Below are positions 12,473 to 58,714 of a stretch of DNA of 64,000 nucleotides, one piece after another. Source of the stretch: Escherichia coli (GTDB lineage: Bacteria > Pseudomonadota > Gammaproteobacteria > Enterobacterales > Enterobacteriaceae); assembly GCF_045037415.1 (NCBI RefSeq), contig NZ_CP173438.1; one strand, 5' to 3'. Both the position numbers and the translations under genes were made by a program. Below the pieces are notes generated by a model. That model was not told the DNA's origin. It saw nothing but the letters and a program-made list of their open reading frames with translations, and made no database searches. How positions within the stretch are numbered: the stretch's first letter is position 1; each line of letters begins with the position of its first letter.

Positions 12473-13352
12473 ATGAGCGACGACAATTCACACAGTAGTG
12501 ACACGATAAGCAACAAGAAGGGATTTTTCTCCCTGTTACTCAGCCAACTTTTCCACGGTGAACCGAAAAACCGTGACGAACTGCTGGCGCTGATCCGTGA
12601 TTCCGGGCAGAACGACCTTATCGACGAAGATACGCGCGATATGCTCGAAGGGGTGATGGACATCGCAGACCAACGCGTTCGCGACATCATGATCCCCCGC
12701 TCCCAGATGATTACCCTGAAACGCAACCAGACGCTGGACGAATGCCTTGATGTCATCATCGAGTCCGCCCACTCACGTTTCCCGGTGATTAGCGAAGACA
12801 AAGATCACATTGAAGGGATTCTGATGGCGAAAGACTTGCTGCCGTTTATGCGCAGCGATGCTGAAGCCTTCAGCATGGACAAAGTGTTACGTCAGGCGGT
12901 TGTCGTTCCTGAAAGTAAGCGCGTAGACCGGATGCTGAAAGAGTTTCGCTCTCAGCGTTACCACATGGCGATCGTCATTGACGAATTCGGTGGGGTTTCC
13001 GGTTCTCGTGACCATTGAAGACATCCTGGAACTGATTGTTGGTGAGATTGAAGACGAGTATGACGAAGAAGATGATATCGACTTCCGTCAGCTGAGTCGT
13101 CATACCTGGACCGTGCGCGCACTGGCTTCTATTGAAGACTTCAACGAAGCGTTCGGCACCCACTTTAGCGATGAAGAGGTTGACACTATCGGTGGTCTGG
13201 TGATGCAGGCATTTGGGCATCTTCCGGCGCGTGGCGAAACCATCGACATCGACGGTTACCAGTTCAAAGTGGCGATGGCCGACAGTCGGCGTATTATTCA
13301 GGTTCATGTCAAAATCCCGGATGACTCACCCCAGCCGAAGCTGGATGAATAA
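12473..13352 (+). pseudogene. corC: corC/ybeX (CBS-domain Mg/Co efflux-associated protein) disrupted by a +1 frameshift near 13003
   Basis: Two ORFs (12473-13018, 181 aa; 12978-13352, 124 aa) together cover the 292-aa CorC sequence; the span is 880 nt (not a multiple of 3); frame changes after ...DEFGGVSG at ggTTctc. Confidence 0.75.
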
Positions 13353-13376: not shown

Positions 13377-14915
13377 ATGGCTTTTGCCTCATTAATTGAA
13401 CGCCAGCGCATTCGCCTGCTGCTGGCGTTATTATTCGGTGCCTGCGGAACGCTGGCCTTCTCTCCTTACGACGTCTGGCCTGCGGCGATTATTTCGCTGA
13501 TGGGACTTCAGGCGCTGACCTTTAACCGCCGTCCACTCCAGTCTACCGCTATTGGCTTTTGCTGGGGATTTGGCCTCTTTGGCAGCGGTATTAACTGGGT
13601 CTATGTCAGCATCGCGACCTTTGGCGGAATGCCTGGCCCGGTTAACATCTTCCTGGTGGTACTGCTGGCGGCGTATTTGTCGCTGTATACCGGACTGTTT
13701 GCTGGCGTGCTGTCGCGTCTGTGGCCGAAAACCACCTGGCTGCGCGTGGCGATTGCCGCCCCTGCTCTCTGGCAAGTGACCGAGTTTCTGCGCGGTTGGG
13801 TACTTACAGGCTTCCCGTGGTTACAGTTCGGCTATAGCCAGATTGATGGCCCGTTAAAAGGGCTGGCACCGATAATGGGCGTGGAAGCCATTAACTTCCT
13901 GCTGATGATGGTTAGTGGCCTGCTGGCACTGGCGTTGGTCAAACGCAACTGGCGTCCGCTGGTGGTGGCCGTCGTGCTGTTTGCCCTTCCCTTCCCGCTG
14001 CGTTACGTCCAGTGGTTTACCCCGCAACCGGAGAAAACCATTCAGGTTTCGATGGTTCAGGGCAATATTCCGCAATCGCTGAAATGGGACGAAGGCCAGC
14101 TTCTTAATACGCTGAAGATTTACTACAACGCAACGGCACCGCTGATGGGCAAATCATCGCTGATTATCTGGCCGGAGTCGGCGATAACCGATCTGGAAAT
14201 TAATCAGCAACCGTTCCTCAAAGCTCTGGACGGTGAGTTGCGCGATAAAGGTAGCTCGCTGATCACCGGGATTGTCGACGCGCGTCTCAATAAACAGAAC
14301 CGCTACGATACCTACAACACCATCATCACACTGGGTAAAGGCGCACCGTACAGCTATGAATCAGCCGATCGCTATAACAAAAACCATCTGGTGCCGTTTG
14401 GCGAGTTTGTCCCACTGGAGTCGATTCTGCGTCCATTAGCACCGTTCTTTGATTTGCCGATGTCGTCATTCAGCCGCGGACCATATATTCAGCCACCGCT
14501 GTCGTTGAATGGCATTCAACTTACTGCGGCCATTTGCTACGAAATCATTCTCGGCGAGCAAGTGCGCGATAACTTCCGCCCGGATACCGACTATCTGCTG
14601 ACTATCTCCAACGATGCGTGGTTTGGTAAGTCTATTGGTCCATGGCAGCACTTCCAGATGGCGCGAATGCGTGCGCTGGAGCTGGCGCGCCCACTGTTGC
14701 GCAGCACCAACAACGGCATTACGGCGGTGATTGGCCCGCAGGGTGAGATTCAGGCGATGATCCCGCAGTTCACCCGCGAGGTGTTAACCACTAACGTAAC
14801 GCCGACCACCGGACTCACCCCGTACTCACGTACCGGCAACTGGCCACTGTGGGTGCTGACGGCACTGTTTGGCTTTGCCGCTGTACTGATGAGTCTGCGT
14901 GCTCGCAAACGTTAA
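13377..14915 (+). CDS. lnt: apolipoprotein N-acyltransferase
   Basis: 512-aa ORF, N-terminal TM segments then C-N hydrolase domain. Confidence 0.96.
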
Positions 14916-21726: not shown

Positions 21727-23397
21727 ATGGATAATGCAGAACTTGCTATTGGTATCGATCTCGGTACTACCAATAGTTTAATTGCCGTCTGGAAAGACGG
21801 TGCCGCGCAATTAATTCCAAATAAGTTCGGTGAATATTTAACACCATCCATAATTAGCATGGATGAAAATAATCATATTTTAGTCGGAAAACCGGCTGTA
21901 TCACGGCGGACTTCGCATCCGGATAAAACGGCAGCGTTATTTAAACGTGCAATGGGCAGTAATACCAACTGGCGGTTAGGCAGCGACACATTTAACGCGC
22001 CAGAACTGTCCTCTTTGGTATTACGCTCATTAAAAGAAGATGCCGAAGAATTTCTGCAACGTCCGATTAAAGATGTGGTGATCTCCGTTCCTGCTTATTT
22101 CAGCGATGAACAACGCAAGCATACCCGTTTAGCAGCAGAGTTAGCCGGGCTAAATGCAGTGCGCCTGATTAATGAGCCAACGGCAGCCGCGATGGCGTAT
22201 GGCCTGCATACGCAGCAAAATACCCGCTCGCTGGTTTTTGATCTCGGTGGCGGCACGTTCGACGTTACGGTGCTCGAGTACGCCACGCCGGTGATTGAAG
22301 TTAACGCCTCCGCTGGCGATAACTTCCTCGGTGGCGAAGATTTTACCCATATGCTGGTCGATGAGGTTTTAAAACGCGCGGAAGTTGCCAAAACCACGCT
22401 TAACGATAGCGAACTGGCAGCCTTGTACGCCTGCGTGGAAGCGGCAAAATGTAGCAATCAATCGCCAATGCACATTCGCTGGCAGTACCAGGATGAAATG
22501 CGGAAATGCGAATTTTACGAGAACGAACTGGAAGATTTGTGGTTGCCGCTGCTCAATCGCTTGCGAGTGCCGATTGAACAGGCGTTGCGCGATGCACGTC
22601 TGAAGCCGAGTCAAATCGACAGTCTGGTGCTGGTTGGCGGCGCGTCACAAATGCCGCTGGTGCAGCGAATCGCAGTGCGTCTGTTTGGCAAATTACCGTA
22701 TCAAAGTTACGATCCGAGCACCATTGTCGCGCTGGGCGCAGCAATCCAGGCCGCCTGCCGCTTACGCAATGAAGATATTGAAGAAGTGATCCTCACTGAT
22801 ATTTGCCCTTACTCGTTGGGTGTTGAAGTTAACCGTCAGGGCGTATCCGGCATTTTCTCGCCGATTATTGAACGAAACACCACAGTACCGGTGTCGCGTG
22901 TAGAAACTTATTCAACCATGCACCCGGAACAGGATTCAATTACGGTTAACGTCTATCAGGGAGAAAACCACAAAGTTAAAAATAACATTCTTGTGGAATC
23001 CTTCGATGTGCCGTTGAAGAAAACCGGGACTTATCAGTCGATTGATATTCGCTTTAGTTATGATATCAACGGCTTGCTTGAAGTTGACGTGCTTCTGGAA
23101 GACGGCAGCGTTAAGTCCAGAGTGATTAATCACAGTCCGGTAACATTGAGCGCGCAGCAGATTGAAGAGAGTCGGACGCGGTTATCCGCATTGAAAATTT
23201 ATCCGCGCGATATGCTCATCAATCGCACCTTTAAAGCCAAACTGGAAGAGTTGTGGGCGCGGGCGCTGGGTGACGAGCGAGAAGAGATTGGTCGGGTGAT
23301 CACCGATTTTGATGCGGCGTTGCAGTCAAACGATATGGCCCGCGTGGATGAAGTTCGGCGGCGGGCGAGCGATTATTTAGCCATTGAGATCCCATAA
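21727..23397 (+). CDS. hscC: Hsp70-family chaperone HscC
   Basis: 556-aa ORF, Hsp70 ATPase motifs (IGIDLGTTNS, DLGGGTFD). Confidence 0.95.
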   Translation: MDNAELAIGIDLGTTNSLIAVWKDGAAQLIPNKFGEYLTPSIISMDENNHILVGKPAVSRRTSHPDKTAALFKRAMGSNTNWRLGSDTFNAPELSSLVLRSLKEDAEEFLQRPIKDVVISVPAYFSDEQRKHTRLAAELAGLNAVRLINEPTAAAMAYGLHTQQNTRSLVFDLGGGTFDVTVLEYATPVIEVNASAGDNFLGGEDFTHMLVDEVLKRAEVAKTTLNDSELAALYACVEAAKCSNQSPMHIRWQYQDEMRKCEFYENELEDLWLPLLNRLRVPIEQALRDARLKPSQIDSLVLVGGASQMPLVQRIAVRLFGKLPYQSYDPSTIVALGAAIQAACRLRNEDIEEVILTDICPYSLGVEVNRQGVSGIFSPIIERNTTVPVSRVETYSTMHPEQDSITVNVYQGENHKVKNNILVESFDVPLKKTGTYQSIDIRFSYDINGLLEVDVLLEDGSVKSRVINHSPVTLSAQQIEESRTRLSALKIYPRDMLINRTFKAKLEELWARALGDEREEIGRVITDFDAALQSNDMARVDEVRRRASDYLAIEIP

Positions 23398-23402
23398 ACA
23401 CG

Positions 23403-23440
23403 GCTACCGGATGCGGCGTAAACGCTGCATCCGGCATCGG
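23403..23440. repeat. REP-like palindrome
   Basis: ccggatgcggcgtaaacgctgcatccgg. Confidence 0.45.
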
Positions 23441-23456
23441 CGCAAAAAACACATCG

Positions 23457-24907
23457 TCAACTAAACAACATCGCGATTTTGCCGAGAGCATAACCTATCA
23501 CCAGCACCGTTAAACTGATTTTGATAATGCTGGTAATGCTCTGTGGTTTTTCATCCTCATCATTTATTTCTTCATGGTTTTCAGGTGTTGGCTCATCGAC
23601 ATCTTCATCCTCCGGCTCGAGCTTCACTTTCGTCAACAGCATTCGGGTGATAATGGTTCTAATGGATGTGCCTCTCCGCGTTCCAGCCGCGCGTCCAGAC
23701 GGGCCAGCATCTCTTGTTTCGGAAACGCTTCAAGTACTACCTGTTCCGCTACCCGATACAAATCCAGTAACGGTGAATCTTGCTCTGTCTCGCTACCGAC
23801 TCTCGATTTCCACCACGCCCATGCTTTGCGTTTGAAGAATAACGACTCAATAAACGATTGACCTAACGGCGATAATTTTCCGCTATGTAAAATCTCCGCC
23901 CATAACAGCCGCGTCCGGGCGCTCTCACCAGGAACATATTTCAACGGCTTACCTTGCGCATCTACCATGCTCCGCGCTTCGATAACCATCACTAATAACG
24001 CGAAATAATCCGGGCAATGACGCTTGCTCCACTGCAACAACAAATTATCGGCTTGTGTAGATGGGTAACTTTCCCGGTACGCGCAGAGATCGGCAAGCAG
24101 GCTTTCCCCCTCGCCGCAGTACAACCGTTGTGCGCACTGGTAATAACGGGCATCTTCGCTTTCTGGTTCTTCCGCTTGCCACTGTTGAGCGACAGGAATG
24201 AGTTCCGCCATACCTGTTTGCACCGAGCTGTACCAGCGCAACAGTTTGCGATGCAACTTCGCATCATCAGGAATGAACCACGGACCTTCCATCGCCAAAA
24301 ACGCAGTGACATAGTCAGGATGGTAACGGCAGCAACGTTCCAGCGAGAAGTAATACTCAACCGTCTGGTTCTGCAACGCAACGGGATATTCCAGAAGGCT
24401 AAGGAAATCGAAACAATCACCAGCCTGAATGGCCTCAAGAAAAGCCTCCCTTTCTTCCTCATCTATTCCTTCGCAGTCATTAAACGAATGCCAGTTCAAA
24501 CGCTCTGCCAGCAAAGAAGCACAATTTAATGAAAGATATCGCGCTTCTATAGCGATTGCACACAGCGGCCAGCGTAATTGATCGACATCCTCCATGTTCC
24601 AGGTATTTAATTGCTGAATAAATTTCTGCCAGGCGGAGGGCTGAAAACGATCATTTTCTGAATCCAGTAATGCCCTGAATACACGTAGTATTTCATGCTC
24701 AGTGGCAGCATCTTTTTCTTCATCATCTGCTTCCTCGACAGGATTTACCGCCAGTCGCAGCGCCTCTTCATAGGCCTGGCGTAATGCTTTAAACCCTTGT
24801 GGATCGGTTTCGGGATGACATAACGGTAAGCGAGCAAGATAAGCCTGGCGGATAATGTCTATTTGCGTCGTGCTTTCAATTTCGAGGATTTGCCAACATG
24901 TTTTCAT
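23457..24907 (-). pseudogene. djlC: J-domain co-chaperone DjlC (YbeV) with an apparent -1 frameshift near 23633-23642
   Basis: ORF 23633-24907 (424 aa, J-domain-like N-terminus) and ORF 23457-23642 (61 aa, acidic linker plus C-terminal TM anchor) overlap by 10 nt in different frames; combined span 1451 nt is not a multiple of 3 (expected 1452 for the 483-aa protein). Confidence 0.65.
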
Positions 24908-25611
24908 AGGTCGCTCACATCCTTAAGCGTTACCGGGCATTCAGGCTGGACAGTTAATGGCTGCCAGGGAAGCGTGGCATAGAAACGGTCGCTTCCCGCT
25001 GCCAGCTCTTCGAACATCCGACTCCCGGCGCTATCGTATTTGTACAGGGTTAGCGCCTCGCGTAGCGAAGCGTTGTCTTCGCACTGAGAAGATTGCCAGT
25101 AGAGACGCCCTAACGAATAGGCAGAAAAATAGTGCATCCAGCTGTGATAGTAATGGTGTGCTCGTATATAGACGCGCGATTGCAGCCATAAACTCTCGTC
25201 TTCCGTCAACCACTTGTTGAGCACACCAACCCGTGATAAAAAACCCATCCGCACATAATCCCAGGCTTTGATTCCCCCTTCCCCACAACACATAGCGGTT
25301 TGGGCAACGAATTGGGTATAAATCAACCCTCTCTCCGAGCCGCCAGCAATTAATGCTTTCCACTCTTCAGGGGAAGAGCGATGCCATGTCAGATATAAGC
25401 CAGCTAAATCATTGGCATGACCATCATCGGTCATCTGATAAATAGTCTGAATTAAATCATCACGATTATTTATTCCCCAGGATGATGAGAGATCGAATTC
25501 TTTTATCCCGGTATACATTTTTGGCGAGTCATGCGCGGGCTTGCAACCCTGATTAAGTATTTCCATGGGCGTAGAAAGCGCAAAAAGAAGATATTGTTCT
25601 TCCTTATTCAT
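24904..25611 (-). CDS. ybeU: DUF1266-family protein YbeU
   Basis: 235-aa ORF; stop overlaps djlC start. Confidence 0.85.
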
Positions 25612-25712: not shown

Positions 25713-26267
25713 ATGAATAAAAAATTAATGTATATATTCGCAATATTTATAGTTGCAGCAATAACCTGTATTAGCCAACCCAAGAAAACGACGTTGCGTG
25801 ATAAAGCCATGGCGAATTATGCCTTTGATTATTTAAGCTCACCGGGCAGTCTTCCATTCACCACGGCAGCCACGGAGCTTTCCGCGATTCATGGTCACTC
25901 AACGTCGCAATATCGCCTTGGAGAATTTTATCTTCATGGTAGCGACGGTAAACCACTGGATTATACACAGGCGAGATACTGGTATGAGCAATCAGCAGAA
26001 CAGGAAAATCCACGCGCGCAAAGTAAACTGGGGTGGATCTACCTCAAAGGTCTGGGGGTCAAACCCGACACCCGTAAAGCAATTCTCTGGTATAAGGAAG
26101 CAGCTGAACAAGGGTATGCTCATGCTCAATATACTTTGGGTTTGATCTACAGAAATGGCTCAGGTATTAATGTTAACCATTATGAATCTCAAAAATGGTT
26201 AAAACTGGCCGCCAAACAACATTACAAAAATGCGGAAAGATTACTTGCCGGGCTTTCCGCACATTAA
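25713..26267 (+). CDS. ybeT: Sel1-repeat protein YbeT
   Basis: 184-aa ORF with N-terminal hydrophobic segment and Sel1/TPR-like repeats ([21 protein letters not shown]...). Confidence 0.85.
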
Positions 26268-26343
26268 CGTCGACTGTCACCCGAACAGATGGAGTATTTT
26301 CCCTATCAAACCAGCAAAGATAAAAATATAGAAAATAATTTTA

Positions 26344-26742
26344 ATGATGCCCAGACAGCCTGGCCCACCATCGTCAACGGGCATTGGCTGCGGTTGCGGC
26401 TCCGATAACGCTGGCGAAGGGGTGGACCAGGACTATAAGCAAGCGATGTACTGGTATCTGAAGGCTGCTGCTCAGGAAAGCGTCGGCGCTTACGTCAACA
26501 TCGGTTATATGTATAAACACGGACAAGGCGTTGAGAAAGATTATCAGGCCGCCTTTGAATAGTTTACGATAGCCGCTGAATGCAATGACGCCACAGCCTG
26601 GTATAACCTGGCCATTATGTATCACTACGGAGAAGGAAGACCTGTCGATCTCCGACAGGCTCTCGACTTGTATCGTAAAGTTCAGTCATCCGGAACCAGA
26701 GATGTCAGTCAAGAAATTCGTGAGATTGAAGATTTACTGTAG
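26344..26742 (+). pseudogene. ybeQ: 3' remnant of a Sel1-repeat gene (ybeQ-like) with in-frame amber stop at 26560
   Basis: Sel1-type repeats read in one frame (...AMYWYLKAAAQESVGAYVNIGYMYKHGQGVEKDYQAAFE*FTIAAECNDATAWYNLAIMYHYGEGRPVDL...); no credible N-terminus. Confidence 0.6.
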
Positions 26743-58359: not shown

Positions 58360-58714
58360 TCCCATCTGCACAAGCGATAACTCGCTTTGCCCAGAGGATG
58401 CACTCGCATCCTCTTTCCGCTCAAATATCAACCAGATTTATCATTTTGCTCTTAAGCGCAGCATTCTAATCTGAACTGGTTATTCATCTGCGGAACCTCA
58501 TATGAGCGAAGCTCTCGGTATCACTGCATTTTATATATTCATAGCAGCAATTATTGTTGCTGCAGTGCTATACCTTGAACAACGCTGGTAGCGCCTGGTT
58601 TTATTTATTTTCCAGCTCAATAGCAAATTCAGATCAAATCAGCCTCGCAAATTATAGATTCATAACCAATAATGTGCTGTTATGTATACATGCAAAAACA
58701 AGGAGAGAATGCTT

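Follow-up and report, generated by a model that had tools for sequence, protein, structure and literature searches.

The djlC (ybeV) gene of this Escherichia coli ST131 genome has very probably suffered a genuine, strain-private deletion of one nucleotide, which leaves a 424-aa fragment without its membrane anchor and represents ordinary decay of a dispensable locus of low expression. In K-12, DjlC is a class C J-domain protein that serves as co-chaperone of the Hsp70 HscC; it is also a model for the tail-anchored membrane proteins of bacteria. Within the window, by which we mean the whole 64,000-nt stretch of DNA analyzed here, the gene is spread over two frames of the minus strand: an ORF of 424 codons (23633..24907) and an ORF of 61 codons (23457..23642) overlap by 10 nt and together span 1451 nt, with the ATG of the shorter lying 7 nt upstream of the TGA of the longer. 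The initial annotation had pointed out this pair of ORFs, read it as djlC interrupted by a -1 frameshift ahead of a C-terminal membrane anchor, and put the length of the protein at 483 aa, for which 1452 nt would be expected. The ORF listing reproduced the pair, and the intact djlC of the closest genomes proved to have exactly that size (1452 nt, 483 aa, WP_001295869.1, annotated as 'co-chaperone DjlC'), one nucleotide more than the two ORFs span. K-12 DjlC is likewise 483 aa long and ends in the same hydrophobic segment, not at PLSPECC without a transmembrane segment.

The lesion was located by base-by-base comparison with O25b:H4, EC958 and Esc28. Where the reference has CCATTAGAGACCATT, the window has CCATTAGAACCATT: the third base of codon 417, a G at djlC nt 1251, is absent between window positions 23658 and 23657 on the minus strand. 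The deletion, delG1251, changes GAG-ACC to GAA-CC, by which codon 417 turns from GAG to GAA and Glu is kept; it lies 22 nt upstream of the TGA and not at the stop codon, which refines the site of the proposed -1 frameshift. Translation of the main ORF shifts frame after Glu417 and stops seven codons later. The 424 codons accordingly comprise 417 native ones, whose product is 100% identical to WP_001295869.1 and bears out the assignment of the gene to djlC, and seven out-of-frame ones encoding PLSPECC, followed by TGA. The 61-codon ORF, now shifted into the -1 frame with respect to the longer one, corresponds to residues 423-483 of reference DjlC, comprising the acidic linker and the tail anchor. 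The best megablast matches were ST131 / O25b:H4 strains (1562 record bases against 1561 query bases, 99.9% identity), and apart from the 1-nt gap the DNA of the djlC region is that of ST131 genomes. Judged from these alignments, the frame pattern reflects one defined base in which the window departs from relatives that are otherwise identical, and not a chance arrangement of ORFs.

An error of sequencing or assembly, behind which the strain would really have an intact 483-aa DjlC, is an unlikely source of the missing base. What speaks for an error is first of all the rarity of the allele. Megablast of the 5,426 complete RefSeq E. coli genomes matched the djlC locus in 4,377 and gave no match in about 1,049 (about a fifth); a 61-nt probe centered on the deletion found 565 genomes, each with the 98.4% identity that the single gap accounts for, and its exact delG1251 form matched none of the 5,426, so that support for the allele comes from one other data set. 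Two of the three differences between the window and EC958 are indels, a ratio typical of error-prone long-read assemblies, and noise is evident in some of the other public contigs that carry djlC indels, where hscC is fragmented as well. Against these points, the same deletion stands on a clean contig from that other data set, the sequence context (GAGA to GAA) is not a homopolymer, the other indel of the window, an extra T in corC, is confirmed in the separate Esc28 genome, and the whole 64 kb holds only three differences from EC958. The other data set is SRR34090864, whose Logan assembly yielded the only occurrence of the exact 424-aa product in public assemblies, on a 44-kb contig. Aligned to intact djlC, this contig carries the same delG1251; it matches window positions 13633-34907 (21,275 bp) gap-free and with one mismatch, and all genes called on it other than djlC are full length. 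The mismatch, at window position 13805 in codon 143 of lnt, is a synonymous T-to-A change (CTT to CTA), T being the base in the window, EC958 and Esc28. This SNP may mean that the read set comes from a distinct, very closely related isolate; SRR34090864 might also be the read set of this very assembly, in which case two assemblers would agree on sequencing that is not independent.

The remaining differences in the window fall into a nested order. Relative to EC958 they are an extra T in corC at 13003/13004, the djlC deletion and a C/A SNP at 58497. Esc28 (NZ_OZ369436.1), the closest complete genome, has an intact djlC and has the corC insertion and the C at 58497 in common with the window; it also carries two private SNPs, at window positions 58592 and 61130 (ahpC), at both of which the window agrees with EC958. 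These private differences identify Esc28 as a sister isolate and not the same genome, and the nesting of private and common changes among the three genomes is, on this comparison, the pattern of real descent. Since the same deletion occurs in the SRR34090864 assembly, the site is free of homopolymers and the differences from Esc28 are tree-like, an assembly error is unlikely, and delG1251 appears most probably real. The SNP at 58497 (C in the window and in Esc28, A in EC958) falls in the spacer before yldA, which encodes a small membrane protein, at a distance of 5 nt from the start codon, and the AhpC protein has the accession WP_452124670.1 in Esc28 and WP_000052796.1 in EC958.

The gene sits at the locus it has in K-12 (ybeT / ybeU-djlC / hscC). 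Upstream, ybeU (DUF1266; 24904..25611, minus strand) is intact and forms a pair with djlC, its stop overlapping the djlC ATG by 4 nt, and ybeT occupies 25713-26267. Downstream by 59 nt, hscC, the gene of the Hsp70 partner of DjlC, is convergent (21727..23397, plus strand), intact at 556 aa and equal to that of EC958. Since the transcription unit ends with djlC and hscC, which comes next, is convergent, no downstream gene is open to polar effects. A scan for terminators and promoters around djlC gave nothing above shuffled expectation and no terminator-like site within the hscC-djlC spacer, its single terminator match (23353-23370, plus strand) lying inside the 3′ end of hscC. Between the convergent stops, the 59-nt spacer (23400-23456) contains a REP-like palindrome, GCCGGATGCAGCGTTTACGCCGCATCCGG.

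Compared with K-12 DjlC, the window product shows 18 differences within the first 417 residues (the ST131 allele has 22 over the full 483 aa) and lacks residues 418-483, the anchor sequence still being present in the other frame. The best Kyte-Doolittle 19-mer of intact DjlC scores 1.99 at residues 464-482, its only strongly hydrophobic segment, and the best 19-mer of the 424-aa product scores 1.36 and is internal, so the same polypeptide has no C-terminal anchor. Hydropathy, an AF2 model and the homologues together place the tail-anchor transmembrane helix at reference residues of about 458-482, encoded at 23463..23537 (minus strand). A C-terminal hydrophobic segment ends the K-12 and ST131 proteins. 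Of 90 full-length homologues, which come from Escherichia, Salmonella, Citrobacter and Enterobacter and are 41-96% identical, 85 have such a segment, preceded by a linker that varies in length and composition; it also ends DjlB (YbeS), the paralogue of DjlC, which is 49% identical over the full length and has the same J domain and PLEALIxRxLL helix. The membrane anchor of the initial annotation is thereby confirmed, and the separation of the J-domain part from it, which had been put forward with the proviso 'if real', is supported by the same deletion in the SRR34090864 assembly. Because the anchor is encoded in a separate frame and most homologues are anchored, the locus is a disrupted allele and not a functional member of the DjlC/DjlB family (Pfam DjlB_C_2nd).

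The frameshift also breaks the last cytosolic helix. Its stretch (23624..23662, minus strand; residues 415-427 in intact djlC) is disrupted after E417, within the PLEALIxRxLL motif (residues 415-425), which is conserved in an alignment of 34 sequences (P415 in 31/34, L416 in 29/34, E417 in 30/34, I420 in 28/34 and L424 in 33/34). A single-sequence AlphaFold model of DjlC was uninformative (pLDDT 41) and was replaced by an AF2 model based on the alignment of the 34 sequences (mean pLDDT 81.9), which contains a helix at 415-427 (mean pLDDT 91 for residues 411-420 and 84 for 421-430), a disordered part at 435-456 (pLDDT below 50) and a terminal helix at 458-482. At the other end, the N-terminal J domain (about residues 1-55; 24743..24907, minus strand) is intact and, as in K-12, carries HPE in place of HPD at residues 31-33 (24809-24817, minus strand), with H31, P32 and E33 invariant among the 34 homologues. 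The Pfam DnaJ match of the product is weak (E = 0.003, 18 bits against a cut-off of 27.8), and an NCBIfam profile search gave no model for DjlC. The frameshift hence removes the anchor, the acidic linker and most of helix 415-427, and it spares the J domain together with the greater part of the cytosolic domain. With most of that modeled helix lost, the product may be unstable rather than merely soluble.

The arrangement of the two ORFs raises the question of whether djlC has been split functionally into a soluble J-domain protein and a separate 61-aa linker-anchor peptide, made by termination-reinitiation and having altered or new roles. The ATG of the 61-codon ORF, 7 nt ahead of the TGA, has a geometry that can allow coupling, and according to PMC6794478 the transmembrane domain of DjlC suffices by itself for insertion into the membrane. 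However, no Shine-Dalgarno-like sequence was found in the 25 nt before this ATG, the peptide has no domain beyond the linker and the helix, and the layout results from a private mutation and is not conserved, a separately called 61-aa ORF being explained by a djlC lesion in the other assemblies examined. A functional split is highly unlikely on these grounds.

The expected consequence of decay, our preferred reading, concerns the membrane tethering of HscC. PMC6794478, citing Peschke et al. 2018, describes DjlC as a bona fide tail-anchored protein of the inner membrane, the transmembrane domain being both necessary and sufficient for its targeting. Given the reported need of the transmembrane helix for targeting, any surviving truncated DjlC would be cytosolic, possibly unstable, and presumably unable to recruit HscC to the inner membrane. 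According to the literature (PMC8215388; Kluck 2002; Fauvet et al. [quoted passage not shown] Compared with K-12, the ST131 background is missing ybeR, the N-terminal part of ybeQ and all but the end of djlB; a tblastn search of the window with K-12 DjlB, the K-12 layout and the EC958 annotation concur on a djlB remnant at 26280..26369 (minus strand), the last 30 codons only. With djlB so reduced, djlC was the sole remaining gene for an HscC-type J-protein, and DjlB cannot compensate for its loss. HscC would thus be left without a membrane-bound J-protein, and probably is without any in this strain, which would be functionally similar to the djlB djlC double mutant reported as cadmium sensitive, with a phenotype that is probably mild.

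There is only a very slim chance that the lesion instead belongs to an adaptive remodeling, within a small ST131 subclone, of envelope and divalent-cation physiology, whereby the loss of tethered DjlC from a djlB-null background would free HscC activity into the cytosol, possibly alongside a separate 61-aa tail-anchored peptide. In the same subclone corC (ybeX) is frameshifted too, 10.6 kb from the djlC lesion. The restoration of full-length DjlC by programmed -1 ribosomal frameshifting or transcriptional slippage has next to no probability, for although a -1 shift anywhere in the 100 nt between the upstream -1-frame stop (23732) and the TGA (23633) would rescue the native C-terminus, neither an X XXY YYZ heptamer nor a homopolymer of five or more bases occurs there, and all 565 genomes matching this stretch have it in one frame. 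A recoding site at djlC was rejected accordingly, the slippery heptamer and base run being absent and the two-frame layout not occurring in relatives.

Decay of djlC is common and the gene is dispensable, as follows from the about 1,049 of 5,426 genomes without a match to the locus and from many independent lesions. A search with the 61-aa ORF recovered delA1248 in several public read sets, including ERR5984741 and ERR10496821, and further delC1205, delG1212 and delCA1238-9. In public contigs, djlC is also broken at about nt 1083 and 1114, next to prophage or Mu-like genes; in strain AVS0542 djlC is interrupted by IS1, and in E. coli B REL606 only a 379-aa C-terminal piece of djlC is annotated. 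Part of this public list may be sequencing error: three contigs (L012, L015 and L017) of those with the 61-aa ORF (L008-L017) have a fragmented hscC too and are probably error-rich. The outcome of the other natural lesions is the same as here, a disrupted djlC, and delG1251 is a distinct event found only in the window and in SRR34090864. A mutational hotspot at nt 1205-1252 was considered and rejected as ascertainment bias from the 61-aa ORF query, the apparent clustering arising because the exact 61-aa ORF is produced only by lesions after the -1-frame stop (nt 1176-1178).

The case is nothing new in kind: through a private frameshift, a known dispensable co-chaperone is inactivated or at the least loses its anchor. 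The proper annotation is one frameshifted djlC pseudogene and not two genes, and the matter has little importance beyond annotation. Its practical use is that of a natural experiment, a strain without both membrane-anchored HscC co-chaperones (djlB deleted, djlC truncated), for which Esc28, with intact djlC and three differences from the window in the 64 kb compared, provides the near-isogenic counterpart. The pair could be used to test the need for membrane tethering of the J-protein in HscC function, for example in cadmium tolerance.

The second frameshift in the window affects corC (12473-13352), which encodes a CNNM-family Mg2+/Co2+ transport protein. The extra T at 13003/13004 turns GGT into GGTT, and ORFs of 181 aa and 124 aa replace the 292-aa protein. 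The Logan contig SRR34090864_41 ends at about window position 13007, within about 3 nt of the insertion, which suggests mixed alleles or a coverage problem in the SRR34090864 reads. Among the 5,426 complete RefSeq genomes the insertion occurs in one, Esc28, where corC is annotated as a pseudogene, and the truncated 181-aa CorC product is on record for Esc28 only.
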